Below, piece by piece: positions 13,766 through 35,300 of a stretch of 64,000 nt of DNA. Location: the IMG/VR virus record IMGVR_UViG_3300002835_000097, positions 24,058-88,057 of that record. One strand, given 5' to 3'. Below the pieces are notes generated by a model. It was not told the origin of the DNA. It worked only from the letters and a program-made list of their open reading frames with translations, and made no database searches. A program made the translations under genes and the position numbers. The stretch is from a virus (Duplodnaviria; Caudoviricetes). Every line of letters begins with the position of its first letter. The first letter of the stretch is position 1.

Positions 13766-13790
13766 ACATCAATTAAATAGGAGTTTTTAA

Positions 13791-16140: not shown

Positions 16141-16434
16141 ATGGATTATCAACAACAACTAATTACTGAAATCGAAACACGATTAAAAACAACTATGATA
16201 GGTTCATTAGCAAGATTCGAACAATCTTTTGGTCATTTGTGGGAAGAACCGGGACCAGATCAGCAAGAATACATAGATCTTTGGGAGTATACTAGAAATT
16301 CTATTTTAAATAATGGAAATAAACAAATAAGATTAGCATTGGAGACTCTATCATCTGTGGTATATAGATCGTATAAAACTAAACAAACATATAATTTTAA
16401 TAATAAGGAACTAGGAGATAAATATGAAAACTAA
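16141..16434 (+). CDS. Hypothetical protein (97 aa)
   Basis: KTTMIGSLARFEQSFGHLW..RNSILNNGNKQIR; tightly packed in the operon. Confidence 0.7.
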   Translation: MDYQQQLITEIETRLKTTMIGSLARFEQSFGHLWEEPGPDQQEYIDLWEYTRNSILNNGNKQIRLALETLSSVVYRSYKTKQTYNFNNKELGDKYEN

Positions 16435-17332
16435 AAATTTTAAGGTTACTATAGACGGTACAGAAAAAGAATTTGTTGTCAAGACACCATCATTAAATGA
16501 TCAAAGAGAAGCACAAAAAGTGTATAATCAAGCTTTCACTGATGCTATAAAAAGCAAAAGTGTTGTAAGAGCAAAGTTAGACGATCTTTTAGAAGATCAA
16601 GGTTTATGGAATGATGAGAAACAGGCTAAATTCACCACTTTACAAAAAGAACTTTTAGACGGTGAAAAAAGACTAGCAAAGGGTGGATTTAGTTTAAATG
16701 AAGCCAAAGACCTAGCTATTAAAATGAAGGGCATTAGAGATGAGATACGAGATCTAATTAGTGTTAGAACTAGTTTAGATAATCATAGTGCCGAAGGTCA
16801 AGCTGATAATGCCAGGTTTAATTATTTGGTTAGTGTTTGTGTGGTGTATAATGATACTAAACAACCATACTTTAATAATATGGAAGATTATCTTAATAGG
16901 TCAACCGATCAGGTTGGTTTGTTAGGAGCGCAAAATTTGGCTAATATGTTATATGGATTGGATAATGACTATGAAAGCAATCTGCCAGAAAACAAATTCT
17001 TAAAGAAATTTAAATTTGTTGACGATAAATTGCGACTTGTTGATAAAAAAGGTAGGCTCGTTGATGCTGAAGGTAGACTAGTAGATGAAAGTGGTAGATT
17101 CATAGATGAAGAAGGGAATTTTGTTGATAAATATGGTAACAAGGTAAATTCTGATGGAGATTATCTGGTTGACCCTCAGCCGTTCCTTGATGATAATGGA
17201 AATCCAATTATTTTAGAAGAAGACAAAAAAGATGAACCAACAGCAGTACAAACAGAGACAGCAAAAGAACCCCCAGTTTCTGAACCACCAAAAAGCACTG
17301 TTGCAGAATCTACGGAGCCTGTTAGTTCATAA
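16424..17332 (+). CDS. Putative tail assembly chaperone-like protein B with 7-aa GxxVDxx repeats
   Basis: Immediately upstream of the TMP; AGGAG SD; RLVDKKGRLVDAEGRLVDESGRFIDEEGNFVDKYG repeats; acidic Pro-rich tail. Confidence 0.6.
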   Translation: MKTKNFKVTIDGTEKEFVVKTPSLNDQREAQKVYNQAFTDAIKSKSVVRAKLDDLLEDQGLWNDEKQAKFTTLQKELLDGEKRLAKGGFSLNEAKDLAIKMKGIRDEIRDLISVRTSLDNHSAEGQADNARFNYLVSVCVVYNDTKQPYFNNMEDYLNRSTDQVGLLGAQNLANMLYGLDNDYESNLPENKFLKKFKFVDDKLRLVDKKGRLVDAEGRLVDESGRFIDEEGNFVDKYGNKVNSDGDYLVDPQPFLDDNGNPIILEEDKKDEPTAVQTETAKEPPVSEPPKSTVAESTEPVSS

Positions 17333-17362
17333 TAAGATTAATAATAATATTAATTTAATAGG

Positions 17363-17407
17363 TATTCCTAACCATGAGTTTAACCTTGTGGTTGGGAATA
17401 TTTTTTT
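17363..17407 (+). terminator. Intrinsic (Rho-independent) terminator upstream of the TMP gene
   Basis: 16-bp stem TATTCCTAACCATGAG / CTTGTGGTTGGGAATA (3 G-U pairs), 6-nt loop TTTAAC, followed by T7. Confidence 0.75.
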
Positions 17408-17436
17408 GGATCGTTAATTCTTTATAGGATAATATT

Positions 17437-20400
17437 ATGGCAACTTTTAATCTAACAGCACAGTTGAATCTTAAAGGTCCAACAAACGTTAAGCAAATAG
17501 CTGCTCAAATTAAAAAAGATCTTGGCGCTCTTAATGCAAATGTACAATTTAAACTTGATCCGGCAGCATCAAAAAATGTTGCAGCATTATCGTCTTCTTT
17601 AAAAGTTTTGAATGCTAATTTTGCCTCAACTGTCAAATCAGCCAATGCTGCCACATCAGCAATAAAGGCTTTTGGTAATAGCGTAAATTCTGTTAAAATT
17701 AACAATGTCCCTCAACAAATTAATCAAACTTCATCAGCAATTGCTAAATTAAATAAAGTATCCTCATCAACATCTGGAGGATTGCAAAATGCCGCAACAG
17801 AGATGCAGGAATTCGGCAAGCAAGCTGGTTTAGCAGTTAGAAGATTCGTTGCATTTAGTGCTGTTACAAGTGTTATATATGGAGTAACAAATAGTATAAA
17901 TAATGGTATACAGGCTTTTATTGATTATGATAAAGAGCTTGTAAAATTACAACAGGTTACTGGAGAATCTGCTGCCGGATTATCCAAACTACAATCTCAA
18001 ATTAGTAATTTAGCTGTAGAATTTGGTGTTAGTTCTAAAGAGCTAACTCAAGTAGCATCAACATTAGCTCAGGCTGGTTTAAGTGCCAGAGAAACTGAGA
18101 AAGCTTTAAAAGCCTTAGCACTTAGTAGTTTAGCTCCGTCATTTGATAATATGAATGAGACTGTGGAAGGTAGTATTGCTATAATGAGACAGTTTGGTAT
18201 TAGTGCTGCTGATTTGGAGGCATCATTAGGTGCGGTTAATACCGTGGCAGCAAGGTTCGCAGTAGAATCTAGTGACATCATTACCGCCGTGCAAAGAACA
18301 GGTAGCGTATTCGCTACTGCGAGTAAAGGGGTAAGCGAAGGAAAAGACGCTTTAAATGAATTTATTTCGGTATTTACCAGTGTTAGAGCAACTACCCGTG
18401 AAAGCGCTGAAACTATTGCTACTGGATTACGAACAATATTTACTCGTATCCAAAGAGGAACAACGATAGACGCCCTAAAAGAGTTTGGTGTTAACTTAAC
18501 AGATGCTGAGGGTAAGTTCGTTGGAGCGTATAAGGCTGTCGAATTGTTAAGTAAAGGATTAGGTAAAATAGACCCTAGAAGTTTGGACTTTTCAAGAATA
18601 GTTGAAGAACTTGGTGGATTTAGACAAATTGGTAAAGTTATTCCATTAATTCAACAATTTAGTGTGGCTCAACAGGCGTTAAAAGTTGCTCAACAAGGAC
18701 AAGGTTCGCTAGCTAAAGATGCAGCAACAGCACAATTAAGTTTAGCTAATCAAATAAGTAAAGTTCGTGAAGAATTTTTCTCACTATTTCGTGAAATAGG
18801 TCAATCCAAAGGATTTCAAAGTTTAATCAGAGGAGCGTTGTCTCTAACTAGTGGTTTGATAAAAGTAGCAGATGCTGTTAAAGGAATTCTACCAGCATTA
18901 GCAGTACTTGCAGCATTTAAGGGATTTAAAGCATTAACAGAATTTACTACAGGATTTGCCACAGGAGTTAAAAGAGGACCAGATGGTAAAGCTAATGGCG
19001 GAGTTATAAGAAAATTCGCACGAGGTGGTGTTGTTCCTGGTACTGGTAGTGGAGATACTGTACCAGCAATGTTAGAGCCAGGAGAATTTGTTATACGTAA
19101 AAAAGCTGTTGAAACTATTGGTACTGATAGTCTTCATAGTATGAATAAGTATGGAAGTGGTGGAAGTATACGAGCAGGAAAATCAAATAGAAGAAAAAGA
19201 TTTGGGGGTGGAGGTAAACTATATGACGATATTGATGTTCAAGAATATTCTAAGTCTAACAAGCAGTATGCTGGTAGGCTCAAAGCTTATGATGCAGATA
19301 GTATAAATTTATTGGTTGATCCAACACAAACACTAGTTAATAAACGTTTTAAAAAACTAACTGGCGATTTAATTTATCCTAGTGAAAAAGGTAAATTTAA
19401 AGTCACATCCAGACTTGAAGGAATAGATGCTTTTGAAATTAAAGCATCAAAAAAAGAAAGAGAAGAGTATGCTAGTCAAGGAGGAAAAGGTCCGGCATAT
19501 GCTAGTAATAGAGAGAAAGGCAAAAGAGCCAAAGATATAACTATAGATTTTATAAGTGGACTTGGTAAAGAAAAATTAGCTAAAATTTTTATCGACGCTA
19601 ATAAAGTAGATTACTATGGCAGACCAATGGCGGAAATTGGTGCTCTTAATAAAAAATTAGTAGGAGAGAATGTTGCAAAATATAGTGGAACTAAAAAAGG
19701 TCAAGACATTATTCAAGCAGATAAACTAGCAAATAGACTAGAGATAATGAAGAAAAATTCAGGATTCGGCAATACTAATAAGTCATCATGGGATAGGGTT
19801 ATTAAAGATGATTATATGTTTAACTATATGCCAGCAGGATCTAAGGATAGGTTTAACAGTTCAGGGAATATAATACAAGACGACTCCCGGCCATTAAAAA
19901 CTATCTCTGATATTGGTTTTATTAAGAAAATGACAGAGACTAAAGGATTGGCTAAGTTCATGGTTGGAGGAAAAGTAGAAAGAAAAATTGGAGTAGTTGA
20001 TACGGACGTACTAAGAGATGAGGCTAATGCGGCGATAGTTAGGCCAGCAATGGAAAAGCTTGGAATAACTGATGTTAGTGACTATACAACAAAACTTGGA
20101 GAATTGGCAGGCAATGCTAGAAAAAGTGGATCGCTATCTAGGTTTAGAGCTATTGCTGGAGCTGCTGGAAGTGGAAAAAGCAGTTTAGCAACCGGAAAGG
20201 GAGCTAATGATGATGCTACTTTAAGAAAAACAATTCGCTCTCAAATATTAACGCCTGAAGATATAGACAAAGTTAATGAAGTTATAGTATTAACATCGAC
20301 AGCTAGTCAGACTAAATTAGATGCTTATTTAAAAGATGTTGATAGAGCATATGTATTAAGCTCTAATAGCAGAGAGGAACAAGATAGAGTTAGGTCAAAT

Positions 20401-23400
20401 AGAGAGAGCAGAGACATTACAGGAGAAGGATTGTATGGTCGTAAACCAGGAACCACAAGAGCAGCTGATATTGATTTTGGTCTGGAAGAAACCATATTAC
20501 GAGATGAACTTGGCAAAAGAGCCACAGTATTAGGAAGAAAAAAAGATAGTTTCGGTTTAAGACGTAAAAGAGAAAGCGAACTACCAGAAATAGTTCAGGC
20601 TGGTGGATTTTATATGGGTGGTTTTGCCCCACCAACAAGAGGCCATAGAGGAGCTTTAGATACTTTATTAGAAAACATGTTAGCAAAGAACCCAAACTCT
20701 TCTTTAGAAGATATTCTTGTTAGTGTTGCTCCTGACCTTCCAATGATTGTTGATAAAGAAGGCATAGACCACGCTGCACGATATGGTATTTTCCCATCAG
20801 ACATAAGAACCTTATTTAGCCAAATGAATTTTGGAAATGCTATGATTAGCACTCAAAGCCAGACGGGTGGTGGTTTACCAAAATTTATGGAAGTTACTGA
20901 TGCTGGAGATAGAAGAAAATTCGCCAGATTAAAAGGAGCCATGGCAATAACTTCTGGTAAAGACGATAAAACATTGGGCAAATACCAAAGAGCAGGAATA
21001 GACGTTACAGATATTCCTAGAATAGAAGATATTAGTGCTACTGCAGTTAGAGACGCATTATTTAATGGTGACGATAAAACACTTACTAGTTTAATGAATC
21101 CTGATATAGCATCAATATTAATGGGCAATAGAGCACAATTACGTAATCGTAGCACTATGGTTCCTATGCTCATCGAAGAAATACAAAAGTTTGTTGATCA
21201 AGATAAAGTACGATCCAATGCTGAGGTTACAGAAATATTATCAAATGCTCCTGGTGGTCCATATGGTAATGTTAGTGCTGATCTAAAGAAAAATTATCCA
21301 GAAATAGCTGAGCAAGTTAAGCAGATAAGAGACAAAAGAGATAGAGTATCTAAAGGAGCATTCGGCTATAGAGCATTTAATATAATAAGCGCCCTATCTG
21401 CCAAATATCCAGAAACTTATGGGTTAGACCCATCAAGAAAATCCGCCGTATCTGCGCAACCATCAGACATAACCAGAGAGGCCATAGCAGCACAAATTTC
21501 AGAACAGATGGCTGGTGAGTTTGGTGGAGTTCCAACAGCTATGCCTTCTGGACTAGAAGAGGCAATACTAAAAAATGTAGAAAAAGCCACCCAGGTCAAA
21601 AAGTCTTCTGGAATATTACCAACACAAGGATCAGAGATTCTAAAAAGATTTGGAACTCAAAGATTACCAAATGATCCAAGTTTTGGCCCATTCTCAGGAA
21701 AAACAGTAAGAGATACAGCCGAAGGAGGAAAATTAAAATACTGGAATTCTGCTTTTAGACCAGAAACAAAAGAAGATAAGCTCGCTTACTATATTGCAAC
21801 AAGAGACTATCTAATAGACAAATTTAATGAATCACAAGGAATTCAAAAGGCTACAGCTCTAGAAGATACAACTAATGCTGTGTTATCTTCCAAACAATTA
21901 GGATTAGTTGGATTAAATCCGCTAGGATATACTGGATTATTGGGTCCAGAGACTTGGAATCTTGGAGTCGATCCGTCTGGCCAAGAAAGATCAATAGACG
22001 CTTCAATAGTACAAAGAGGACTACCAACAGAATTCCAAAACGTTATTGATTATCTTAGTGGACAAACAGCAGAAATAGTACAAGGAGCATCAAAGCTTCT
22101 TGGTATTACTCCTAAAGAATTAACTAAAAAACAAAGAGAAACATTAGGACAAGGAAATATTGAGGGTGCTTTACTAGAACAAATTTTTGGATCAGCAGAT
22201 GCCACAATATTAGACGATGCATTAAGAACAAGACCAATTGACTTTCCAATGGGTATCGGACCTAAAGCAGCAAAAATATTTGGTATCGATCCTGATATTC
22301 CAACAGAAGTTAAAAGAACAATAGATAGTAATAGTAGAGGTAAAGCTGTTGAAGAATTTCAAAAATATTTTAGACAACAATACGGCATTCCTGATCCAGA
22401 AAAAGTAACAGCTTTTGCTGACGGCGGAGAAGTATATACTCCACAACAACTAGTCTCATTAGCCAAATACAGAACAGGACCATTTCCTGGTGGTGGAACT
22501 GATAGCGAATTTATAAATAGATATTTAGAAGATAATGATTCTTTCATGGAATATCTTAAAACTTTCCATGCTGATCCTCCAAAGGCGTATGATGCCACAA
22601 AGAATGCTGCAAAAGATTTATTGGAAATGTTTACTAGCCAAGAATCAATGAGTGGCTCAAAGCGTTCTGGTAAATTATATTCCACTGTTGCTGGTGGTAA
22701 ATTAAAAACCATTTTAACTCAAATTAATAATCCTTTAAACTCTAATAAAGATATTTCTGATGCTATTGGTAAAAACTTTAATTTAAATGGCTCATTATTA
22801 TCAACTAGTGAATCCCCGGATACAGCTAGTGTATTTCAGCCAGAAAATGGTTCTAGTGCAATGTTGAGTATCATTAGAAATAAAAATATTCCATCTATTG
22901 ATGTTGATAAGGCAATATTTGATACCTCCACAGAAGAAGATATTATAAAAGCATTATCAAAATATATAGACCCTGTCTCTGGAAAAAGCGGAGCAGATTT
23001 TCTAAGCAGAAGTCGATCAGCAACACGAATAGAAAAAGAATTCATTCTCCCACAAACTTCAAAATTTAGAATAGATGATATTGATAGAATATTTAGTAAA
23101 GATCAAGAAGATAAATTATTAGGTGGAAATATTCGTCATATAGAAGGAATGAAAGTTCAGCAGTTTAAAGATGGAGGAATGGCATTTGGTAAAGAAAATG
23201 AATTTGAAAAAATAAGACAAAAAATATTAAATCAATATCCAGATATTAATTTTAGAATTTCCAGACGAAAGAATGGTTTTGGATACAATATATTAGGCGG
23301 ACTAAAACAAGAAAGTAGTAACATTGGTAATTATGCAGAATTTAAGCAAGCTGGTAATCTTTCTAAAATACAAGAAGTTGCCGATAATATGGCATCCTCT

Positions 23401-26400
23401 CTGCTATATGAATATGGTCCAAATATAGATCCGTCTCTTCTAAAGAAGATGCAGAATAAAAGAAAATTTGCAAATGGTGGGTCTGCGCAGGATACTGTAC
23501 CAGCATTATTAACTCCTGGTGAATTTGTTGTTAATAAAAAAGCAGCAGAAAAAATAGGATATGGCAAGTTAGAAAAATTAAATAAAGCAGATAAAATACA
23601 AGGATACAATAAAGGAGGAATTGTAGGAGGAGTACAAAGATTTGCTTTAGGTGGAGGTGTAGATGGCTTTCTTTCTGGATTACAAAGCATAGCAAGTAAT
23701 TTAGGAAGAACACAAAATATTACTAATAATCGCCCAAATTCAATAGATACTAGTACAATAGCTGTAGACCCATCTATTCTGCAAGATACAAAAGCATTTG
23801 TGGACACTCTTTATGATGCCGGAGACGGCATGAAGTATTTAAATCGTTTATTAAATGAAAATAAACAATTATCTATACAAGCAGTATTAGAAGCTGGTAA
23901 TAAAGATCTAGAAAGATTAAAAATTAGTGGAGCATCTATTGATAAAATTATAGAAGCTGAAAAGGCATTGTCTAATATTAGAAATAAAGGACTTATTGAT
24001 GTTACTAATCGTCAATTTTTAGAGTCTGGATTTAAAGAAAGTTCAGTTGGTAAAAAATTAGGATCAGGAGCTACGCAACAAAAAATATTATCTTTAGCAG
24101 AAAAAGAAGAGCGACGATTAATAGATAAAAGAAAAAAGGCTATAGAAGCTGATATAGTATCATCATCCAAACAACCAATATCTCCATCAGACTTAGCTGA
24201 TCAGGTCGCCCAAGCTATATCTTCTGAATTAAATGATATTAAAACGCAAGCATTTTCTAGAGCTACAGCAGCGGCTACAGGAACAAAAACTTCTACTGGC
24301 ATAAAAGGGAATATAACAGAAAGTGAATTAAAAAATCTAAATATAACTGGAAATGATATTCAAAAATATATTTCTGATTCTATGAGAGATAGAAAAACTC
24401 TCAGACAAATGGATCAGCAGTTAATAGCTATGAGAATGGAAGAGTATAAGAATGCTGGAACTGTTAGAGGTATTAGCGTTGCTTCTGCAGAGGAAGCTAA
24501 AAAATTAGCACAGGAAGAAGTTAGCAAACGAAGAGAAGCTATAAATGATCTGGCAAAAATGAGAGGAGAACGAGGTGTTGGAGCTGCTGGATTAATGGAT
24601 ACTAGAAATAGTCCTATTAATCGAGCATTTAGAGAAAGATACTTTACTGGAGATCTAGGAAAAAGTATGCAGAGAGGATTGGGCGACATTGGATTAGCGG
24701 CAGGATTAGTTGCTGGACAAGGAGACAACATAGCATCAGCATTATTTGATACTAAAACCGATAAAGGCAAAATACAAGCGGCAGATACAGGCGCAAGAAT
24801 CGATAAAGCAGCAACAACACTGTCTGTTGGTCTAACAACATCAGCACAATTAGCTGCTATAAATCCTATGTTAGGAGCTGCTGCTGCTATAGGCACAGCA
24901 CTGTATGCTGGCGCTGATGCTGTATATGATTTCTCAGGCACTGCCAAAAAAGCAGCTCAAGAAATGGCAAGAGCTTTATTAAATGATAAATTATCTGCTG
25001 CTAGTGATAATCTATCAAATGCTTTGGAAAAATTAAGCAGAGATGCTAATAACGTTGAACTTAGAGCAAAAACAGCATCAACCATTAAAAGCTTAACAGA
25101 TACTGCCCTGGAAAGCACAGCAGATACAGGAATAACAGGAAAGAATAAAGCAGAGACGGAGCGTAATTGGTCAGATTTTGGCAGAGGAATATTGTTGGCC
25201 ATTGGAGAAATTGGAGTTGGTATGAATCCATTCTACCAAGACATGGACCCTGTAACGCTTGCAAAATCCAAACAAGGCTCTTATGGCATGGAAGAAGCAA
25301 GAGTTGATGCTCAAAAAGAAGCAGAAAATTTTCAAAAAATAGCTAATGCTGGATATACCGATCTAGAAAGGCTATATGCAAAAGGATTCACTAATGATCA
25401 AATTATGGATCCTACTAATGAAGCTGGAAATATAGTTAGAGAATCTATAAAAGGCATGATTCTAGCTGATTCTGAAAAACGAGCTTTATATATGGCTGCC
25501 GGACCACAAGGTAAAGAAGCTATTGCTGGTACAGCAGCGCAACAAGCATTTTTAGCTAATGATGAATTAGCAAAAGCTTCTCAAGAAGCTGCAAAATTAG
25601 CAAGAGCTATGGAAATTGCTGATAAAGCAGGACGAAGATTAGCAGCAAGTTTTGATAAAATAGCAGATATAGTAAATGAATCTGTTAATAGAATATCATT
25701 TGAGTCTGATGCTAGAGTAGAAGCGGCAAACCAATATGCATCATCATTACGTGGAGAGTCCAGAGGTTCTGGTCCAAAACTAAGAGAAAGAAATATTTTA
25801 GAAAATCCCAATGCATATTCTGAAGCAGAATTTACTGCAGCACTACAAAGTGCCACAGCAGGATTAAGTGACGGACTTAGAAAACAACTGATTGGCGGTG
25901 CTCAATTACAACAAAACATACCAAAAAATATAACAAAAAGCATAGCAACTGTTTTAGACAAGAGCGCCGGCTCAGGAGTAGATGAACTTAAAAAAGCAGC
26001 AGTTGATACTGCTAAAAATGAAATAGAAAATAATGCTAATTTATCTAGACAACAAAAAGATGAATTAAAACAAATAGCTACGGCCAGGATAGAAACTATA
26101 GCTAAAAAAGCTAAAGATAACAATGCCGATAATACTACGCAAGTATCAGAATTTAGAAAAGAACTAGAAGAAGGTACTAGTGTTTTAGGTGATTTTGGTA
26201 AAAAATTATTAGATTCTATAAAAGGTCTATCATCATTCAAAGAAGGAGCATTAGATAAATTTGCTAAGGGCTTGAATGAAGCTAGCAAAGCAGCTAAAGA
26301 ATCTCAAAACTATTTTAGAAGATCAAGAGAAATCTCTAACGAAGGCAATATGAACCTAAGAGAAGTCTTGAGTGGATACGGTGAAACATATGATGAACAA

Positions 26401-29400
26401 TTTAATAGAATTATGGGTGATGTTGGTGGTTTAGCAGGAGGTGAAACAACTGTTCAGGGAATTAAAAATAGACAAATAATGCTTGCTGAGCAAAGAGATA
26501 CTCTACAGAATCAACAAAATACCCTTACAGATAAAGACGCTTTGCGTAACAATGTTGAACAGCTTAATAAATTAGATGATCAATTAAGAGATAATAGAGA
26601 AGCATTAGATATGCTTGCTAATAGTACAGAATTAGTAGATAAAGCTTTCAACAACTTGCAAAATACTGCAGAATTACAGAATAATCGACAAAATTTTGTT
26701 AATCAATTATTAACTAATACGCCAGAAGAAGCAGATAAACTTAATCAAAGTTTTATTAGATTACAACGAAATCTTTCTGGAGGACTCAATAGTGCATATA
26801 ATCAAAGAGACGCTAGAAAAGCATTTAATGAAACATTATTTAAGACCGGAAATGTAAGAGAAGCAACTCGCGCCGGAAATACTGTTCTTGCTAATCAAAG
26901 AAAAGAAACACTATCATTGATGCAGGATCCCGGATTCAGAGCTGCTCAAGAATTACAGATAAGAAATCAATATGCTCAGAACCGAGGAAGACCAGGAGTA
27001 GATGCTGATCAAGCAGTAGCAGAATATTTTCAAAAACAGCAATTACAAGTAACCAAACAAATGGCGATAGAAAGTGGAATGATAAATAATCCACTTGTTC
27101 AACAGTCATTGGCTGTCCTAGAGGATCGCAAAGCAGATCCTGCTATGCAACAGGCTGCTGAAAGATATTTAGAAGCTGTTGGATTAAGAGCCGATGCTAC
27201 AAAAGCACAAGGAGAACTGGCTTTATTAGAATCACAATCCATACTAAAAAATTCTAATGATAATTTACGTATTAGTATTGATGATTTAAGAGCAAGCATC
27301 GAAGGAAATCTGAATAATGCTAATATAGGTATGGACGCTGCTGGTAACAGAATAGTTAATCCTGGGGTGGCTGTTCCTGCTCCTGCTGCGGCCAGATCAT
27401 CTGGAGGATTAATATATGCTAGTAGTGGAAAGCTTATTGATTTTAAGCCTAAAGGTACCGACACTGTTCCTGCCATGTTAAGTCCTGGCGAATTTGTTAT
27501 CAATTCTAAGTCTACACAAAAACATTTACCATTATTGAAAGCTATTAATAGTGGAAATTATAGTAAGGGTGGAGTGGTTTATTTACAAAAGGGTGGTAAA
27601 GCAGGAACTAATATTGACGAAGATATAGATCTAAATAAAGATGGAACAATTACAGATGAAGAACGACAGATTTATCAACGTCGAAAAGAATTATATCTAA
27701 CAAGATCATTTGGACAAATGGATTATAGACAAGCATATTTTACTAGACCATTCGGATATAGTAAAGGAGGGCCAGTAAATTATTTAGCCAATGGTGGCGA
27801 AGTACAAAAAAGAAAAGAAGAAAGAATAGATGCTCAAAAAGAATCATGGATGATGTCAGAAGCAGCCGGAAGAAGACCTGATGAGGTAGTTTCTAGAACA
27901 TCATCTAGTTGGGCAGAATCTCAGGTAGGTAGTAATAAATGGCAAAGTATGACAGAAGAACAAAGACAATCAGAAACTAAAAAATATGAACCAGAATTTC
28001 AAAACAGATGGGATAATTATAATAATAGACAGAATGACGCACAACTCAGAAGTGCTAACGATGCAGGATATGGCAGTATAAAGGAGGATCCTAACTCTGG
28101 TATTGTTGGGGTTAATTTTTATAATGAAGAAAAGAAAAGAGCTAAAGAAAGATTTGAAAAAGCTAGTGCGGCTGAAGCTGAAACGGAAGCATCAAATAAT
28201 CAAATGACTCAAAGCTCTATGGAGCAACCAGCTCCAGTAGCAGTTCCTCTACCCGATATGACAAAAATACCTTGGGGCAGAGGAGCGGCAATAAAGATTG
28301 GACCAACACAAGAAACTATCAATGAGAGAAAAAAAATTAAATCTGAAGAGTCACGAAGACGATCATTATGGCTTAAAGGAAGCAAAGGAATAAGCTCAGA
28401 AGAAGAAACAGAATATGCAACTTTAAAATCTAATCAAATAAAAAGAGAGGTAGGCCCGTATACTGTAGAAAAAGATCGTAATATTTCTTCTTTAGTAAAT
28501 AGTGCCTATCGTAAAGGTGCTCAGTCTAATGAGATAACATCAGAAGAAAGATCAGCCCTAAAAGAGTTAGGCTCTGATCCTAGAAATAGAGGAAGTTTAC
28601 GAGCCCTATCATTTAGTGCTGCGTTGCCTCCAATAACTAGTAACGGAGGAAAACCCGACCCTATTGATCCAGCAACTGTCGCTAGAATAAATCAGAGTGC
28701 AAGACCTGACATAGCCGATCCTGCAGTCTCTTCAGGTGTTCAAACAGGAAATCCTTCAGAAGGAATGGTTAATCGTACAGCTAATAATAGAGCTTATGAG
28801 GCTAATCAGGCTAAAAAGAGAAAAATGGCTGGATTAGCATTAGGATTGTCAACAGAGGCTGATCAAGAAACAGCAGACCTTTTGGAACAAATACTTTTTG
28901 GTGGACCTATAGAGAGACCTATAGAGAATAATCCAGCAAGAGAAAAAAGACAAGCAGCTTTAACTACAAATATTATAAACCAAGCCTTAAATAAAAAAAC
29001 ACCAGATTATTCCATAGCCACCCCAACATCTGGTGATCAAACCACTAAAACTGAACGACTAACCAAAGAATTTATTGGATCTTCAGCAAGCAGACGAGCA
29101 TTTAATGCAGTTGCTAATAATGGCGGAACATTAGCAGAAGCCAATGCAGCAGCTAAAAATGCCATACAATCACAGGCTGAAAGATCAAAAAGCATAGTGG
29201 AAAAAAGAAAAGACGAAGGTAAAAAAGTAATAGACTATTATGAACAAAGACTAAATGAAGCCAGAGCAGACAACGACGGAGATGGACGACCAGACTTTTC
29301 AAACGAAGAAATAGACAAGAGAAAAAGAGAAAGAGATAGCGCAAGAGTTAATTTTTCTGGTAACATGAATCCTATTGGTCGTCAGCCAGAATCATATTAC

Positions 29401-32289
29401 TCATCTAGAAAAAATGCTGAAAGATGGGGAGCTAAACAATATACTAGTGCTGAGGACTACTTTGCTGCTCAAGGAGCAAGACAAGATTATCTTGACAGAC
29501 AAGCAAGAATAAGAAAAGAAAATGAGGCATCTGCTGAAGGATTTAAGGCAGGGGTTTCCCATGTTGTTAATATGACGGAACCACAATATGCTGCGGCATT
29601 TAGATCCACATATGGAGATACAGCAGCCGATGCTCTTGGTAGAGCTACTAGAATGGATCCATCAGTAGGGCGTAATAATGAAAATACAAGAATAAAAGAC
29701 GAAGAGAAAAAAACACGAGAAACATTCGATAGGGCTAAAAATTATGAGGGGCCACTAGGAAATGCTGCTTATGTTGGAGATACTTTAACACAAGCTATTG
29801 TTGGAGCATTACCACAAGATCGTGCTCGTAATGATAGTCAAGACATGAAAGACATTAATGCTCGTCGTGATGCTTATAGAGAAAGAGAAAAACTAGCTGG
29901 AAATAAAGATTTTAGTTTTGAAAATAGTAGTAATTCTTTTTATAGAGGTCTTGGAACTACAGGCAGATACATTGGAGATCTTACTGCAGTAGCTACTAGT
30001 CCCTTTAGAATTATTGGCGGAGGTGGGGGAGCATTGTTGGGTGGGGCATCATTAGGCATTGCAGAAACTCAAAAGGTGCTTGGTTATGACGATACTATGG
30101 CTAGAGCTTTTGGCGATAAGGCATTAAGTCAAGCGTCTGATTCTGTTGGTGCTGGTATTTCAGATATTAATAGACTAGCTGAACAAACAGGCAGATTAGC
30201 CACCTATGCCGGTATTCCTTTTGGATTAGAAGCAGATCCTTTACTTAAAAATAATTCAGCAGGAATGATATTCGACGAAAGAAATGTTTCTGAAGCTGGA
30301 CCTTTAGGGCCCGTAGTTAGGGCCGCTAATGTGATTAGAGATGTTACTGCTGATTCGGTTATGCCATTACCAATTCCTGGAGCTGGTAAAGTTAGAAGCG
30401 TTGCTGGCAGATTGGATGATATGGACAAAGCTGCAGAAAAAGCCTATAAAGTTTCGCAAAGAGCCTACGAAGCAGCACAAAGATCATCCATAGCCAGTGC
30501 CACAGAATCTACTATTCCTAAAATGATCCAAAATTATGTAGAAAAATTGCCAATACCTTCAGAGGCTACAGGTTCTATAGGGTCCATGGGACGGTTAAGC
30601 AGAGGGGAAGCTTTATCTAGATCATTAAAAGATTTGAGAGAAGTAAAAGTGCCGTCATTACGCAGTGACCCTATGGATATGTCTAAACTTGGTAAATCAG
30701 CAAAACAATCACAACCAATATTAGATCCTTTACAAGAAGCTGCCAAATCAGCTGCTAAGCCCAGAATTACGGCAGCAGAATATACAAAACGTGCAGAAGA
30801 AGCAAGATCTGCTGCCAGAGCCAGCAAGCCAAGAGTTACTGCTGAAGAATTTATGGCCAGAACAAAACCAGATGCAACAACATTACCAATCAAACGACCA
30901 CTTCCAGAAGTTATAGATGTTACTGATACCAAAACACTAAGACAAGTTCAAGAGAATTTAGCTAGTGATTTGGCTGATTATGCTACTCCAGCAAAAAGAG
31001 ATCAGTTCTTGTCAGAATTTGTTGAAAAGTCTACACCGCAATCGGTATCTGTTGATCCTAAAGCACTAGCTGAGGCCAAAAAGAAAGTTGCTAAGACCAT
31101 AGGTCCGGTAAAAGCCCCAGACGGCATGGTTACTTCAGGTAACAAAATGATATTTAAGGACGCTAAGACAAAAACATCAGTAGTACAGCATGAATTAGCC
31201 CACTCTTTTCAAACTAAAACTGCTGGAATGAAGGGTGATCCTTTTGGAGGTAAAAAAATACAGCTATCAGGACTAATGAAGGAAATCGAGTCATTTGTTG
31301 ATGATCCGAAGGGATTAGTTGCTATAACAGGAGGCAAAGGATATTCTGCAAGTCAAATCAAAAAAGCCCCATATGAACTACTAAGCACCTTGATGCAACA
31401 TATGGAAAAGGTAAAGGGTAATAAAAGAGCAGAAAATATTTTAAAAAAATTAATGAAATTCCATGGATATAGTAAGGGAGGATTAGTATATGCTAATAAT
31501 GGAGCTTTTATTAATGCTAACAATGGAACTACAGATGATACTCCTGCAATGTTAACTAAAGGAGAATTTGTAATAAATAGACAAGCTACTAAAAAACATA
31601 TGCCACTTCTCAATGCTATTAATAGTGGTCATTTAAATAGAGGCGGAATTGTTAATTATTTGGCCAATGGAGGTATAGTCGGTCCACAATATCTTGCTGC
31701 TGGTGGTCGATCAATGGCTAGTATATCAAATTCTAATATATTACCAGAACTATTAAATAAATTATCAAATACTGGCATGAATTCTTCTGGTGGAGCCTCA
31801 CAACTAGCACCTCTTTCTAATGTTGTACAGACACTTAAACAAACCGCATCCTCTGCCGGTGGTGTATCTAATAATGTTAGTATAGATACGGCTAATATAT
31901 CATCATCCATACAGGATGCTGTTACAAATGCTATTGGTCAATTTAATGAATATACAGAGCAAATTGGGGCTAATTTTACTGAACAGTTTGGTGCTGCACA
32001 AAAAAGTTTGTCATCATCTATCAACACATTCCAAACAGCCACCGCTCAATTTGGAGAACATGCAAATGCTATACCAACGTCATTATCTGCTAATGTTACG
32101 CAAACAACATCACTTCACCATATTGGTTTAGAATCTATAAAAGGTAATATGGAAAAAAATATATACGACAATACTTCTGTTAGTTCAAAAAATATTGCCC
32201 AAGACACCGTCATGCAATATGATAAAACTGTTTTTGAAGGAGGCATGAATAGTGCCGCTAAACCAAGTATTATGGGACGACCATCATAA
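17437..32289 (+). CDS. Giant tape measure protein (4950 aa) with embedded enzymatic cargo domains
   Basis: TP901-type TMP core near the N-terminus (YDKELVKLQQVTG..LAVEFGVSSKELTQVASTLAQAG..ESAETIATGLRTIFTRI); long Ala/Lys/Glu/Gln helical tracts; canonical position after tube and chaperone genes; four DTVPAML-GEFV-like modules. Confidence 0.9.
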   Translation: MATFNLTAQLNLKGPTNVKQIAAQIKKDLGALNANVQFKLDPAASKNVAALSSSLKVLNANFASTVKSANAATSAIKAFGNSVNSVKINNVPQQINQTSSAIAKLNKVSSSTSGGLQNAATEMQEFGKQAGLAVRRFVAFSAVTSVIYGVTNSINNGIQAFIDYDKELVKLQQVTGESAAGLSKLQSQISNLAVEFGVSSKELTQVASTLAQAGLSARETEKALKALALSSLAPSFDNMNETVEGSIAIMRQFGISAADLEASLGAVNTVAARFAVESSDIITAVQRTGSVFATASKGVSEGKDALNEFISVFTSVRATTRESAETIATGLRTIFTRIQRGTTIDALKEFGVNLTDAEGKFVGAYKAVELLSKGLGKIDPRSLDFSRIVEELGGFRQIGKVIPLIQQFSVAQQALKVAQQGQGSLAKDAATAQLSLANQISKVREEFFSLFREIGQSKGFQSLIRGALSLTSGLIKVADAVKGILPALAVLAAFKGFKALTEFTTGFATGVKRGPDGKANGGVIRKFARGGVVPGTGSGDTVPAMLEPGEFVIRKKAVETIGTDSLHSMNKYGSGGSIRAGKSNRRKRFGGGGKLYDDIDVQEYSKSNKQYAGRLKAYDADSINLLVDPTQTLVNKRFKKLTGDLIYPSEKGKFKVTSRLEGIDAFEIKASKKEREEYASQGGKGPAYASNREKGKRAKDITIDFISGLGKEKLAKIFIDANKVDYYGRPMAEIGALNKKLVGENVAKYSGTKKGQDIIQADKLANRLEIMKKNSGFGNTNKSSWDRVIKDDYMFNYMPAGSKDRFNSSGNIIQDDSRPLKTISDIGFIKKMTETKGLAKFMVGGKVERKIGVVDTDVLRDEANAAIVRPAMEKLGITDVSDYTTKLGELAGNARKSGSLSRFRAIAGAAGSGKSSLATGKGANDDATLRKTIRSQILTPEDIDKVNEVIVLTSTASQTKLDAYLKDVDRAYVLSSNSREEQDRVRSNRESRDITGEGLYGRKPGTTRAADIDFGLEETILRDELGKRATVLGRKKDSFGLRRKRESELPEIVQAGGFYMGGFAPPTRGHRGALDTLLENMLAKNPNSSLEDILVSVAPDLPMIVDKEGIDHAARYGIFPSDIRTLFSQMNFGNAMISTQSQTGGGLPKFMEVTDAGDRRKFARLKGAMAITSGKDDKTLGKYQRAGIDVTDIPRIEDISATAVRDALFNGDDKTLTSLMNPDIASILMGNRAQLRNRSTMVPMLIEEIQKFVDQDKVRSNAEVTEILSNAPGGPYGNVSADLKKNYPEIAEQVKQIRDKRDRVSKGAFGYRAFNIISALSAKYPETYGLDPSRKSAVSAQPSDITREAIAAQISEQMAGEFGGVPTAMPSGLEEAILKNVEKATQVKKSSGILPTQGSEILKRFGTQRLPNDPSFGPFSGKTVRDTAEGGKLKYWNSAFRPETKEDKLAYYIATRDYLIDKFNESQGIQKATALEDTTNAVLSSKQLGLVGLNPLGYTGLLGPETWNLGVDPSGQERSIDASIVQRGLPTEFQNVIDYLSGQTAEIVQGASKLLGITPKELTKKQRETLGQGNIEGALLEQIFGSADATILDDALRTRPIDFPMGIGPKAAKIFGIDPDIPTEVKRTIDSNSRGKAVEEFQKYFRQQYGIPDPEKVTAFADGGEVYTPQQLVSLAKYRTGPFPGGGTDSEFINRYLEDNDSFMEYLKTFHADPPKAYDATKNAAKDLLEMFTSQESMSGSKRSGKLYSTVAGGKLKTILTQINNPLNSNKDISDAIGKNFNLNGSLLSTSESPDTASVFQPENGSSAMLSIIRNKNIPSIDVDKAIFDTSTEEDIIKALSKYIDPVSGKSGADFLSRSRSATRIEKEFILPQTSKFRIDDIDRIFSKDQEDKLLGGNIRHIEGMKVQQFKDGGMAFGKENEFEKIRQKILNQYPDINFRISRRKNGFGYNILGGLKQESSNIGNYAEFKQAGNLSKIQEVADNMASSLLYEYGPNIDPSLLKKMQNKRKFANGGSAQDTVPALLTPGEFVVNKKAAEKIGYGKLEKLNKADKIQGYNKGGIVGGVQRFALGGGVDGFLSGLQSIASNLGRTQNITNNRPNSIDTSTIAVDPSILQDTKAFVDTLYDAGDGMKYLNRLLNENKQLSIQAVLEAGNKDLERLKISGASIDKIIEAEKALSNIRNKGLIDVTNRQFLESGFKESSVGKKLGSGATQQKILSLAEKEERRLIDKRKKAIEADIVSSSKQPISPSDLADQVAQAISSELNDIKTQAFSRATAAATGTKTSTGIKGNITESELKNLNITGNDIQKYISDSMRDRKTLRQMDQQLIAMRMEEYKNAGTVRGISVASAEEAKKLAQEEVSKRREAINDLAKMRGERGVGAAGLMDTRNSPINRAFRERYFTGDLGKSMQRGLGDIGLAAGLVAGQGDNIASALFDTKTDKGKIQAADTGARIDKAATTLSVGLTTSAQLAAINPMLGAAAAIGTALYAGADAVYDFSGTAKKAAQEMARALLNDKLSAASDNLSNALEKLSRDANNVELRAKTASTIKSLTDTALESTADTGITGKNKAETERNWSDFGRGILLAIGEIGVGMNPFYQDMDPVTLAKSKQGSYGMEEARVDAQKEAENFQKIANAGYTDLERLYAKGFTNDQIMDPTNEAGNIVRESIKGMILADSEKRALYMAAGPQGKEAIAGTAAQQAFLANDELAKASQEAAKLARAMEIADKAGRRLAASFDKIADIVNESVNRISFESDARVEAANQYASSLRGESRGSGPKLRERNILENPNAYSEAEFTAALQSATAGLSDGLRKQLIGGAQLQQNIPKNITKSIATVLDKSAGSGVDELKKAAVDTAKNEIENNANLSRQQKDELKQIATARIETIAKKAKDNNADNTTQVSEFRKELEEGTSVLGDFGKKLLDSIKGLSSFKEGALDKFAKGLNEASKAAKESQNYFRRSREISNEGNMNLREVLSGYGETYDEQFNRIMGDVGGLAGGETTVQGIKNRQIMLAEQRDTLQNQQNTLTDKDALRNNVEQLNKLDDQLRDNREALDMLANSTELVDKAFNNLQNTAELQNNRQNFVNQLLTNTPEEADKLNQSFIRLQRNLSGGLNSAYNQRDARKAFNETLFKTGNVREATRAGNTVLANQRKETLSLMQDPGFRAAQELQIRNQYAQNRGRPGVDADQAVAEYFQKQQLQVTKQMAIESGMINNPLVQQSLAVLEDRKADPAMQQAAERYLEAVGLRADATKAQGELALLESQSILKNSNDNLRISIDDLRASIEGNLNNANIGMDAAGNRIVNPGVAVPAPAAARSSGGLIYASSGKLIDFKPKGTDTVPAMLSPGEFVINSKSTQKHLPLLKAINSGNYSKGGVVYLQKGGKAGTNIDEDIDLNKDGTITDEERQIYQRRKELYLTRSFGQMDYRQAYFTRPFGYSKGGPVNYLANGGEVQKRKEERIDAQKESWMMSEAAGRRPDEVVSRTSSSWAESQVGSNKWQSMTEEQRQSETKKYEPEFQNRWDNYNNRQNDAQLRSANDAGYGSIKEDPNSGIVGVNFYNEEKKRAKERFEKASAAEAETEASNNQMTQSSMEQPAPVAVPLPDMTKIPWGRGAAIKIGPTQETINERKKIKSEESRRRSLWLKGSKGISSEEETEYATLKSNQIKREVGPYTVEKDRNISSLVNSAYRKGAQSNEITSEERSALKELGSDPRNRGSLRALSFSAALPPITSNGGKPDPIDPATVARINQSARPDIADPAVSSGVQTGNPSEGMVNRTANNRAYEANQAKKRKMAGLALGLSTEADQETADLLEQILFGGPIERPIENNPAREKRQAALTTNIINQALNKKTPDYSIATPTSGDQTTKTERLTKEFIGSSASRRAFNAVANNGGTLAEANAAAKNAIQSQAERSKSIVEKRKDEGKKVIDYYEQRLNEARADNDGDGRPDFSNEEIDKRKRERDSARVNFSGNMNPIGRQPESYYSSRKNAERWGAKQYTSAEDYFAAQGARQDYLDRQARIRKENEASAEGFKAGVSHVVNMTEPQYAAAFRSTYGDTAADALGRATRMDPSVGRNNENTRIKDEEKKTRETFDRAKNYEGPLGNAAYVGDTLTQAIVGALPQDRARNDSQDMKDINARRDAYREREKLAGNKDFSFENSSNSFYRGLGTTGRYIGDLTAVATSPFRIIGGGGGALLGGASLGIAETQKVLGYDDTMARAFGDKALSQASDSVGAGISDINRLAEQTGRLATYAGIPFGLEADPLLKNNSAGMIFDERNVSEAGPLGPVVRAANVIRDVTADSVMPLPIPGAGKVRSVAGRLDDMDKAAEKAYKVSQRAYEAAQRSSIASATESTIPKMIQNYVEKLPIPSEATGSIGSMGRLSRGEALSRSLKDLREVKVPSLRSDPMDMSKLGKSAKQSQPILDPLQEAAKSAAKPRITAAEYTKRAEEARSAARASKPRVTAEEFMARTKPDATTLPIKRPLPEVIDVTDTKTLRQVQENLASDLADYATPAKRDQFLSEFVEKSTPQSVSVDPKALAEAKKKVAKTIGPVKAPDGMVTSGNKMIFKDAKTKTSVVQHELAHSFQTKTAGMKGDPFGGKKIQLSGLMKEIESFVDDPKGLVAITGGKGYSASQIKKAPYELLSTLMQHMEKVKGNKRAENILKKLMKFHGYSKGGLVYANNGAFINANNGTTDDTPAMLTKGEFVINRQATKKHMPLLNAINSGHLNRGGIVNYLANGGIVGPQYLAAGGRSMASISNSNILPELLNKLSNTGMNSSGGASQLAPLSNVVQTLKQTASSAGGVSNNVSIDTANISSSIQDAVTNAIGQFNEYTEQIGANFTEQFGAAQKSLSSSINTFQTATAQFGEHANAIPTSLSANVTQTTSLHHIGLESIKGNMEKNIYDNTSVSSKNIAQDTVMQYDKTVFEGGMNSAAKPSIMGRPS

Positions 32290-32323
32290 AAATATTTTGT
32301 ATATTTCATAAGGTATAAATTAA

Positions 32324-35300
32324 ATGATAAATAATAAACTAATAAAAGTATTTGATAATGTTGGATTTTCATTTACGATAGAAAATGATCATTTTAAAAT
32401 TTTATCAAAACTTAAAAATTATAATTCATTAAATTCTACTCATGTTGGTTTTTATATACCTTATATAGCAAGAAATATATCTTATCAATATTTTGAAACT
32501 GGTGTTGGAGAAATAGTATTTGATGGCGCTGGTAATATCTCCGTTAAAAGAAACTCTATTTCATCATCTTCTAATGAAAATAAATCAGTTTTCTTTCCAG
32601 ATTCTGGTAATGAATTTTATGTTTTTGCTAATCAAAGTTATTTTGATACACTATTAAATAATGTTATTATATTAGATCGTAGCTCAATATTAGATAATAT
32701 AAGTGCTATATATTTAGTAGATACTTCTAATGGAGACATATCTCTAACATTACCAAGTCCATCTAAAAAAGATATTTTTCTAGAATTTAAAGTAATACAA
32801 TCATCTAATGCTTTAACTATTAGAGATTATAACGATAGAGTATTAACTGTTCTTGTGGGTAGCAATAATTATATCAGACTGGTTTCTACTGGCGAGGATT
32901 GGGTAGTACTAAACAAAATATCAGAGTCTGCTAATATACAGTCATTATCTGAAAATGATTCAGTATCAATGTTATCTAATCCTGTAGGCTCTAACTATTC
33001 TTTACAATATAAATATGATGATACAACTTTTGGATCCTCACAAGCGTACTGGTATTCTACTGCTAGTGGACAAGCTCTATTATTGGGTGCTGATAACCTC
33101 AATGATGCGAACTCGGTTCTTGCGACATCAGGAACAAATAATTTTCTATTTAATAAAAACAATGCAGCTAATGATTTTATAGTTTATGGTAGTGGTACAG
33201 ATAATAGAAATTTATTTTTCTCGTATGATGGTAAATTAGGTATTAATATGCCATCAGGAGTAAAGCCATCAACATTATTACACATAGTTAATAATCTATG
33301 TCAAAATTGTCAAGAAGGTATTAGATTAGAAAATAGGGCCTCGACTTATCCTACAAATATTACTTTATATTATAAACCATCAACTAATATTCCAGCTAAT
33401 ACTATAGTCTCAAGACTACAATTATCAGCATCTAATTCTTCTGGCATCCAAACAAACTATGGAAAAATAGAAGCTAGAGCAGTAAGTTCATCTCATGGAT
33501 CCGAAAGAGGCGCGATTGATTTGATAGTTGTATCAGGAAGTACAGGGGTAAAAACACTCAATACTAGTGTTGAAAATACTATTTTAGGATATCCAAACAC
33601 TAAAATTACTATTAATAATAATGGAAATATGATACTGTCTAATGGGTCAAACCAGATAGAGGTCGGATCCTCATCAACCACAGTATCATCTGAAACAGTA
33701 ACAATAACTGGTATTTCATATTTAAATACAATTAATTCTCAAAATATAACTTCTCCAAATATTTATGTTAGCAGTTTATCTCAAAGTGGATTGTTAACAA
33801 TGTCTAATGGTAAAATTGCTAATAGTCAGATAACAATTAATAGCAATGGGTCTTTAAATTTACCTATTCCCTCAAACAGAATACTCAGTACAACATCCAA
33901 TGGCTTGGTAACTGGTATTTATAATACAGATGATTATTTCTTAACGCAAAAAGATATAACATGGAATAAATATTCTCCAAAATCAGCTACAGTATGTTTA
34001 AGACAAGTTATATTAGTAAATCCAATTAGTTCAAATGAGTTTTCTGTTGATGATCAAATACTAATTAGTTTATCGGGCACTAATTATTATAGAAATATAG
34101 ATACAATAACACTAAATGGTGGTAATCAAATTACAGAAATGTTATTAGATACAGCCGTTCCTTTTGGTGATACTAACGATATTACTATACAGTCTATTAC
34201 CAAGGGTGGATATTTAAGTCTTTTTAGATACGCAGACAATGAAACTTCCGACTCAACATCTCATATTTTGAGCATTAGACCCAATTTCAGTACAGTATTT
34301 AATACATCCAAAAAAGATACAAATTTTGAAATCTATGGATTGAATAATAGTCCAGCTTTATTTGTACAAGCTAGTGGTTCAAGTGTAGGAATCAATACAT
34401 CAAACTTATTCACTATACCATCTGGGCAAAATGTAATTTTTCAACAACCCAGTAACATTCCAGCAAGTTTAACAGTTAGTGGCTGGCTGTATTCAGATAA
34501 TATTATGGTTGGATCAGCAAGCTCTGATGTTCCCGCGCTAGTCAGTCCAGGCATAATAGAATCAAGTGGAATAAGAGCCAAAAAAGTACAGTACATAAGT
34601 CTTGAACAAATAGATATTTCGGGAAATGTAATATCATCATCAACTTCTTCAATAATAAACAATAAAGTTGTAACTACTTTTGATCAGGGTATCAGAGCCT
34701 ATGCTAATACTGGTGACCCAGGTTTATATTTGTATCCCAAAATTAATAATGCATTGAGTGGAAATGCTTATGGTGGAGTTTCTTTTACTACATTTTTAGA
34801 CAGAGCCAAGTCAACTGCATCAGGATGGTCTTATGATAGAAAATCTAAAACCACTATTAATACTGATACTCCATATATTTTAGGTTCATTAGCAACTGGA
34901 ACATACGAAGCTAATGGTATAACAGTAACAGGATATGGTTATTTATATTCAGATTTAACCGTAAATGGTATTGCTTACGCATCCGAAATAGTATCTGAAG
35001 ATATATATTTAAGACCAGCTCCAAGTACAAATAATACTGGTAAATATATAGCAAATGCATTTTTAACTTTAGATCGTAATGGCAAAATAGTTTCACAAAT
35101 TCCAACAGCCAATTACACAACTCCAACTGCTCCTCAAAATCTATCAGCAACACAAGGCAACGGTATTGGTAATGGTGAGGTTTCTTTATCTTGGACAGCT
35201 CCTCAAAGTAATGGCGGCACTTCAATACTAGCTTATATACTAGAATTTTCTTTGGATTCTGGTTCAACATGGACAAGATTGCCTGTGGGTAATTATACTT

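Follow-up and report, generated by a model that had tools for sequence, protein, structure and literature searches.

The DNA examined here is a window of 64,000 nucleotides (nt), positions 24,058 to 88,057 of the 88,057-bp IMG/VR virus record IMGVR_UViG_3300002835_000097 (Caudoviricetes), with a G+C content of ~33% and nearly all of its genes on the + strand. At 17437..32289 on that strand lies an uninterrupted open reading frame (ORF) of 4,950 amino acids (aa; translation table 11), whose product contains zero cysteine and 15 histidines. To judge from its sequence, this product is the tape measure protein (TMP) of an uncultured freshwater siphovirus-like phage lineage. We found that the TMP is interrupted by a series of enzyme-like modules that are present in some of its relatives and absent from others, and we think it probable on balance that it has turned into a carrier of these modules, which the virion would bring along and release into the host.

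The TMP core occupies aa 1-515 (17437..18981). In a Pfam search with the whole protein it was the sole match, to PhageMin_Tail (PF10145, TP901 family) at aa 188-380, with an E-value (E) of 1.1e-21 and 78.1 bits against a cutoff of 33.2. Five PHROG tape-measure families matched aa 18-500, and the core is ~25% identical to YomI, the TMP of SPbeta. This is in agreement with a first-pass annotation, made by a model from the letters and their reading frames, which had placed a TMP core at about aa 1-510. Hydropathy indicated hydrophobic segments at ~aa 130-150, 463-492 and 2472-2496. The last of these falls in an Ala/Gln/Glu/Lys-rich, Pro-poor tape segment at aa 2086-3320 (23692..27396), and the protein ends in a Ser/Thr/Asn/Gln-rich C-terminal tail at aa 4766-4950 (31732..32289, stop codon included).

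The remainder of the protein is organized by repeated joints. A PAxLxPGEFV motif, within a unit of ~70-80 aa, is present in 4 copies at aa 543, 2022, 3345 and 4703. The four joints enclose two insert blocks, at nt ~19000-23660 and ~27390-31710, which are the two cargo blocks that the first-pass annotation had delimited. Joint 1 (aa 516-600, 18982..19236) consists of a FARGG...DTVPAMLEPGEFV unit, joint 2 lies at aa 2006-2085 (23452..23691), joint 3 at aa 3321-3465 (27397..27831) and joint 4 at aa 4681-4765 (31477..31731). When the joint 3 copy (nt 27379-27636) was used as a tblastn query, it matched 382 places in 364 isolated-phage records, so that these phages mostly have one joint each; among the matches listed, 38 of 40 were annotated as tape measure protein. 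The number of copies per protein ranged from 0 to 7 in the 145 local sequences. Judged by these matches, the joint unit is a common TMP motif and is not peculiar to the 4,950-aa protein. The [FYL]xxGG linkers that had been proposed to bracket the cargo are likewise real as a statistical feature, since 19 were observed against 4.8 +/- 2.2 in shuffled sequences and 0 of 2,000 shuffles reached 19.

Block 1 begins with a staphylococcal nuclease (SNase)-type module at aa 596-845 (19222..19971), with a nuclease core at ~610-760. When a 17-row alignment of the module was used as a profile against the PDB, staphylococcal nuclease was matched with an E of 2.3e-7 over residues 8-119 of 149. D24, D26, R64, D69, E72 and R134, in the numbering of the window's segment, are invariant in all 17 rows. 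The DxD, RLxGxDxxE and GRP motifs of the module align with DGDT, RL..VDTPE and YGR of SNase, whose calcium-binding and catalytic residues we take to be D21, R35, D40, E43 and R87. The Pfam family SNase (PF00565) matched 3 of the 17 members (best E 9.5e-5). We rate the assignment as an SNase-type nuclease, predicted from the profile match and the invariant catalytic residues, as good, as the first-pass annotation had suggested from motifs.

The SNase module is followed by a P-loop kinase-like module at aa 846-1055 (19972..20601), with the Walker A motif GAAGSGKS. Positions G58, A60, G61, G63 and K64 of this motif are invariant in the alignment of relatives. Comparison by VIA gave a Z of 6.0 to the zeta toxin 6epg_B for model residues 1-201, and the nearest Atlas clusters were AAA_33, Zeta_toxin and CoaE at 0.90, with a low shared count. 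Pfam returned generic P-loop matches below threshold only. Of the proposed P-loop NTPase or kinase, the Walker A motif is thus fully conserved, but support for the fold is weaker (Z 6.0, local predicted local distance difference test score [pLDDT] of ~33), and we hold the kinase-like prediction with moderate confidence.

Directly downstream lies an (H/T)xGH nucleotidyltransferase module at aa 1056-1290 (20602..21306; GGFAPPTRGH ... ISATAVR). GGF[AS]PxTxGH is conserved without exception in the 17 rows, as are I349, S350, T352, V354 and R355 of the ISxTxVR motif. The AF2 model of aa 851-1650 (overall pLDDT 59) is usable for approximately its first 510 residues, while residues 510-800 include long stretches with a pLDDT below 50; in the nucleotidyltransferase part, local pLDDT is 66-89. 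By VIA, this part gave a Z of 10.7 to PPAT 4nah (root mean square deviation 3.0, 141 residues aligned) and 10.2 to NMNAT 1f9a, followed by NMNAT, NadD, NadM and NadR structures at Z 8.4-10.4 (NadD 9.3-9.6), TmcAL at 8.3-8.6 and ATP sulfurylases at 5.7-7.4. Foldseek gave a probability of 1.00, a best E of 1.5e-3 and a TM to target of 0.6-0.67. At the sequence level, Pfam HIGH_NTase1_ass matched 12 and CTP_transf_like 4 of the 17 members, phrog_395 (cytidyltransferase) was matched with an E of 0.001, and 3gmi was matched weakly by the PDB profile. Model and motifs together make membership in the PPAT/NMNAT/cytidylyltransferase/TmcAL superfamily, which the first-pass annotation had also called, a secure prediction. 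Its substrate may be phosphopantetheine, an NAD precursor or, in the manner of TmcAL, acetate/tRNA. The order of the P-loop and nucleotidyltransferase pair is the reverse of that of the kinase and NMNAT domains in NadR.

A profile of the whole of aa 851-1650 gave weak PDB matches only, namely, 3gmi, UvrA P-loops and a glucokinase; a further weak match to designed armadillo repeats is probably spurious. Among the best 8,000 candidates by shared words that were scored, no shorter stand-alone relatives of the P-loop and nucleotidyltransferase pair were found, just 3 TMP fragments. The pair is followed by a helical segment at aa 1291-1534 (21307..22038), which was modelled as long helices with a pLDDT of 83-88 up to ~aa 1360 and poorly beyond, and which had no Pfam or PHROG match.

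Further downstream in block 1, aa 1661-1915 (22417..23181; KLYS ... LLSTS ... EKEFILP) form an ADP-ribosyltransferase (ART)-like module. Pfam ADPrib_exo_Tox (PF03496) matched 11 of 15 aligned members at E <= 0.01, with a best E of 1.3e-8. The profile of the module had 8 matches in the PDB, five at E 0.025-0.05 and three at E 0.92-3, and all 8 are, as we understand them, ARTs (SpvB, ExoT, Lmo0066, Vis, ExoS and a Tre1-type PAAR protein). The residues S129 and S131 of the STS motif and E206 and E208 of the ExE motif are invariant in 15 of 15 rows, and the motifs align with LSTS of ExoT and EAE of SpvB. In the alignment with Lmo0066 (8za7_B), the module Ser that stands in place of the canonical arginine is matched to the R of "RG". 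The ADP-ribosyltransferase of the first-pass annotation was therefore retained as a homologue with invariant STS and ExE motifs, but, because the canonical Arg is replaced by Ser, its activity is uncertain. On the strength of the alignments, we consider the call of an ART homologue that is not a typical R-S-E enzyme to be good. A small module at aa 1916-2005 (23182..23451), present in 8 of 96 relatives, follows it and had no family match in Pfam or PHROGs.

Between the helical segment and the ART-like module lies a region of a different kind, at aa 1535-1662 (22039..22422; GQGNIEGA..E / R.IDFP.G.G / PTEVKRT). It was present as a single copy in 108 of 120 local sequences (96 proteins and 24 locus ORFs, some of them duplicates). 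In a search of 1.84 billion proteins it was found in 172 cluster representatives (50% identity), nearly all of them 1,200-7,300 aa long. The first-pass annotation had read this region as a PD-(D/E)xK nuclease. A D...[DE]xK pattern is conserved in it, with D68 invariant, D or E at position 90 and K92 nearly invariant in 33 rows, but support from fold or family is lacking: there was no PDB profile match and no Pfam family, the AF2 model built on the 33 rows has a pLDDT of 60.9 and consists mostly of helices with two beta bridges, and the best Z in a VIA-wide comparison was 2.9. On these grounds, the nuclease assignment is not supported. Pfam matches to HTH_8 (7 of 20, best 0.0066) are regarded as noise, and Atlas gave a weak lead to LPD38. 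Nor does the region behave as swappable cargo, as had been supposed, since it is single-copy, near-universal and restricted to TMPs. We regard it, from its conservation, as a TMP-specific element of unassigned fold and not as demonstrated nuclease cargo.

Block 2 is made up largely of a polar and charged region at aa 3466-4450 (27832..30786), sub-segments of which are found in only 3-8 of 96 relatives. At its upstream end, joint 3 carries a loop, DLNKDGTITDEE (~aa 3405), that fits the DxNxDGxIxxxE pattern of EF-hand loops and that Pfam EF-hand_5 matched weakly (E 0.068, 13.1 bits against a cutoff of 25.9). Of the Ca-binding loops that had been predicted, one loop with the EF-hand pattern (~aa 3396) was recovered, but at motif level only. 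At its downstream end, aa 4451-4680 (30787..31476) form an HExxH module, with VVQHELAHSF at ~aa 4583-4592. All 16 rows of the alignment, drawn from two subfamilies, keep H56, E57 and H60 unchanged, and related modules were found in 64 of 145 local sequences, with up to 3 copies per protein. Pfam matches were below threshold only (M78 in 2 of 16 members, best 0.021; M91 in 2; M90, Zn_peptidase_2 and Astacin in 1 each), and there was no match in the PDB (E >= 1.2). The HExxH peptidase of the first-pass annotation thus keeps its invariant motif, but it is without an above-threshold family or PDB match, and we call it metallopeptidase-like at motif level only. Taking the module segments together, a segment-wise Pfam search with the window's own sequence gave sub-threshold hints only, and of ten segments searched against PHROGs, the nucleotidyltransferase alone was matched.

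We then compared the distribution of these modules among 96 giant relatives. As the relatives were gathered with aa 590-2080 as the query, the set is biased toward proteins that share block 1; the presence of each module was scored by blastp and jackhmmer. The core was found in 89 of the 96 and tape aa 2701-3320 in 94, with the conserved module at aa 1535-1662 in 84, the P-loop and nucleotidyltransferase modules in 62 each and tape aa 2086-2700 in 41. The SNase module was found in 22 relatives, the ART-like module in 20 (with two copies in 3 of them), the C-terminal tail in 14 and the pieces of block 2 in 3-9. The idea that cargo is swapped while the core is kept is therefore borne out by the contrast between the core and tape aa 2701-3320, on the one hand, and the SNase and ART-like modules, on the other. 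Position varies as well: the ART-like module starts anywhere from aa 404 to aa 3116, and it precedes the P-loop block in loci L009 and L016 but follows it in the window. Duplications were also observed, with two ART-like modules in each of the TMPs P0063, P0048 and P0049 and three HExxH modules in P0059. Among 1,324 termini of high-scoring segment pairs, 63% fell within 15 aa of an [FYL]xxGG motif; windows of this kind account for 9.3% of the length. In these comparisons, relatives are seen to gain, lose, duplicate and move modules, with breakpoints concentrated at [FYL]xxGG and joint motifs. The ratio of nonsynonymous to synonymous substitution rates (dN/dS) was 0.08-0.25 in 9 of 9 module comparisons with close relatives; by this measure, the tested modules are under purifying selection. 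Relatives of block 1 were not found by megablast or tblastn in 50,697 phage records.

TMPs lie in the lumen of the tail tube and leave first at infection, and this, together with the published case of gp96 of the Thermus phage P23-45, is why we infer that the virion carries the modules and releases them into the host. According to this proposal, the modules would be stored in the tail-tube lumen and, at infection, would enter the host envelope or cytoplasm before the DNA does. Once there, the SNase could immediately attack nucleic acids of the host, the ART-like module could act via NAD+ on host proteins or nucleic acids, and the kinase and nucleotidyltransferase pair could act on a nucleotide cofactor or an RNA substrate. 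The modules may travel as unfolded chains and may be separated by cleavage at the GG linkers, for which the HExxH module is a candidate, and they may have host-takeover or anti-defence roles.

Several observations weigh against this proposal. The lineage is uncultured, and a pattern scan of 185,579 prokaryote species genomes found no relatives and so gave no hint of a prophage or host. The lumen of the tail is ~4 nm wide, which does not accommodate folded domains of 25-30 kDa several abreast, and packaging would therefore need an extended state. The window's own SNase segment is below the Pfam threshold, and so is its ART segment (17.0 bits against a cutoff of 23.4, E 0.0038). In the ART-like module, the canonical [YF]RG motif reads LYSG, LYAG or LYST in the 15 rows, with Ser in place of the Arg in 13 of them. 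The P-loop region is poorly modelled at residues 60-85, where the pLDDT is ~33, and roughly 1,000 aa of block 2 had no Pfam or PHROG match and no enzyme signature. The segment-pair termini do not represent independent events, owing to the common ancestry of the relatives. Finally, wall-degrading peptidases occur in other TMPs, and the HExxH module could be such an enzyme rather than a processing protease.

Three other explanations, taken here in order of decreasing probability, would account for the inserts. In the first, the modules serve entry only and are not effectors of cytoplasmic takeover or anti-defence. They would act in the envelope, much as the wall hydrolases known from TMPs do, with HExxH directed at the wall and the nuclease at nucleic acid outside the cell or in the periplasm. 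This would fit with the transglycosylase annotated in the closest TMPs of isolated phages (SPbeta YomI) and with HExxH being the most widespread type of insert locally. It accounts poorly, however, for the P-loop, for an NAD+-dependent transferase fold and for a nucleotidyltransferase whose ATP-binding motifs are intact, all of which need ATP or NAD+. ATP and NAD+ are cytoplasmic substrates. We consider a role in entry only to be unlikely.

A second explanation, to which we give rather little credence, is that the inserts are cut off during tail maturation or are never packaged, so that they act late in the producing cell and the fusion merely couples their synthesis to that of the TMP. Cleavage could take place at the GG and joint motifs, which are conserved and mark every module border, an HExxH module is present on the same chain, and gpH of lambda is trimmed during assembly. 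Nevertheless, it is not evident why enzymes that act late would need to be fused to a TMP, as they are in 62 of 96 relatives. Moreover, in the published western blot, virions of P23-45 contain the fused enzyme part of gp96 (PMC10770324).

The third explanation holds that the inserts are mainly length spacers or decayed relics with defunct enzyme-like motifs and that the gene simply encodes a very long ruler. The ART without its canonical Arg, the scarcity of recognizable structure in block 2 and the moderate confidence of the AF2 models (pLDDT 59 and 61) are what such decay might leave behind. Against it stand the SNase, HxGH/ISxTxxR, Walker A, STS/ExE and HExxH residues, which are invariant down to 20-35% identity, and the dN/dS values of 0.08-0.25. 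We consider this explanation improbable.

The physical reality of the ORF was assessed in sequencing runs. For nt 18900-28899, at least 86% of the sampled words were present in 24 runs with 24 study codes, all of them lake or freshwater metagenomes from 2016-2024; no RNA dataset holding this region was among the sequencing runs matched. In the contigs of 4 further runs, each run covered 30 of 30 bins of 17000-32700. Pieces with 0 differing letters crossed module borders, among the pieces listed at 18616-21818, 21943-25117 and 29621-31871, and no contig piece from the 4 further runs spanned the whole ORF. The 96 relatives (2,733-7,724 aa) come from separate contigs that reach 248 kb in length, and ~30 IMG/VR contigs bear such genes (49 locus records). 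That several genes were wrongly joined into this long ORF during assembly, a concern raised by the first-pass annotation and one that the missing full-length piece might seem to feed, is very unlikely, to the point of being negligible, because identical overlapping pieces from the 4 further runs bridge the module borders and the relatives lie on separate contigs.

We next considered whether enzyme-bearing TMPs of this kind have been described. In Thermus phage P23-45 (Chaban et al. 2024, PMC10770324), gp96 (also in P74-26, G20c and TSP4) is a TMP of 5,002 aa with a fused virion RNA polymerase. The RNA polymerase part was detected in virions and transcribes pre-early genes, and the authors propose that its flat shape allows passage through the tail channel (PMC10770324). 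The two proteins are alike in being giant TMPs of ~5,000 aa with an enzyme, and the same text also mentions a metallopeptidase domain and transmembrane segments (PMC10770324). They differ in that gp96, as it is described there, has one enzyme, an N-terminal two-barrel RNA polymerase, whereas here a string of unrelated modules is shuffled among relatives; the comparison is one of descriptions (PMC10770324). The statement of the first-pass annotation that it knew of no characterised TMP with this payload therefore needs to be narrowed: gp96 is already an enzyme-fused TMP (PMC10770324), but a multi-enzyme payload was not found in the full texts searched.

Polyvalent proteins combine many disparate conflict-type domains, including ARTs and metallopeptidases, on one polypeptide, for which entry into the host together with the DNA has been proposed (Iyer et al. 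2017, PMC5512222). Like them, the single ORF here combines several unrelated modules (SNase, nucleotidyltransferase, ART-like, P-loop and HExxH), but polyvalent proteins are not TMPs, and the carrier here is the tail ruler, with TMP joints serving as module borders. In the text of Iyer et al. 2017 (PMC5512222), "tape measure," "tape-measure" and "TMP" have 0 occurrences, and the weak Atlas lead to LPD38 is the only link to the polyvalent domain set. A second parallel is provided by the TMP-related Sle1 effectors, which carry diverse functional domains and are packaged in an actinobacterial contractile injection system (CIS) (Nagakubo et al. 2026, PMC13277306). Both have a TMP-like scaffold in a tail-like tube and exchangeable domains; Sle1 is nevertheless bacterial CIS cargo with one functional domain each, actinobacterial, and not the ruler of an infectious phage (PMC13277306). 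With ordinary and SPbeta YomI-type TMPs, the protein shares the N-terminal core and the joint motif. Those TMPs mostly have one joint, with a transglycosylase in the YomI type, whereas the protein described here has 4 joints and a payload that appears nucleotide- or NAD-related rather than wall-degrading.

The principle of TMP-borne enzymes is already known from P23-45 gp96 and Sle1. What goes beyond the publications found is the multi-enzyme, cassette-shuffling form and the payload of an SNase, an HxGH nucleotidyltransferase with a P-loop and an ART-like module. A search of the full texts of the papers available found no TMP with an ART, nucleotidyltransferase, polyvalent or effector payload of this architecture.

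If the modules do travel with the TMP, long-tailed phages would have a protein injection route of their own, similar in logic to polyvalent proteins and CIS cargo and built into the ruler. The family is sizeable, with 96 giant relatives and 172 clusters at 50% identity carrying the TMP-specific module, and the set of cassettes varies by phage; it could thus supply a collection of natural candidates for enzymes of host takeover or anti-defence in the first minute of infection. Delivery of this kind would also raise the structural question of how several hundred kDa of nonhelical protein are stored in and passed through a narrow tube, and it complicates the rule that the length of the TMP sets the length of the tail. 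A more elaborate version, which we put forward as a speculation with the odds against it, is that the tail lumen works as a reloadable magazine. The enzymes would be threaded in extended form, freed at the GG and joint linkers and refolded in the host. The NAD+-using transferase and the kinase/NMNAT-like pair would then modify targets and rebuild a cofactor depleted by abortive infection before any gene expression; alternatively, the pair would repair or modify tRNA if it is TmcAL-like.

The genes adjacent to the TMP gene are on the same strand and are nearly blank in PHROGs, with tail-fibre-like matches only, at 859-4131 and 5852-6811. Directly 5' of the TMP gene, at 16141-17332, are ORFs of 97 aa and 302 aa in different frames that overlap at 16424-16434 and have no PHROG match; the position directly before the TMP is the usual site of tail assembly chaperones made with a programmed frameshift. 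Just upstream of the TMP region, at 11332-14903, are three tandem ORFs (404, 408 and 370 aa) that matched nothing in PHROGs and are paralogous, with pairwise identities of 37-51%. On the downstream side, PHROGs gave only phrog_15511, of unknown function, on ORFs of 884 aa and 489 aa (with one ORF of 2,544 aa left out of the search). The region at 32324-63924 is taken up by very large ORFs on the same strand, of 1,172, 1,462, 884, 2,168 and 2,544 aa.

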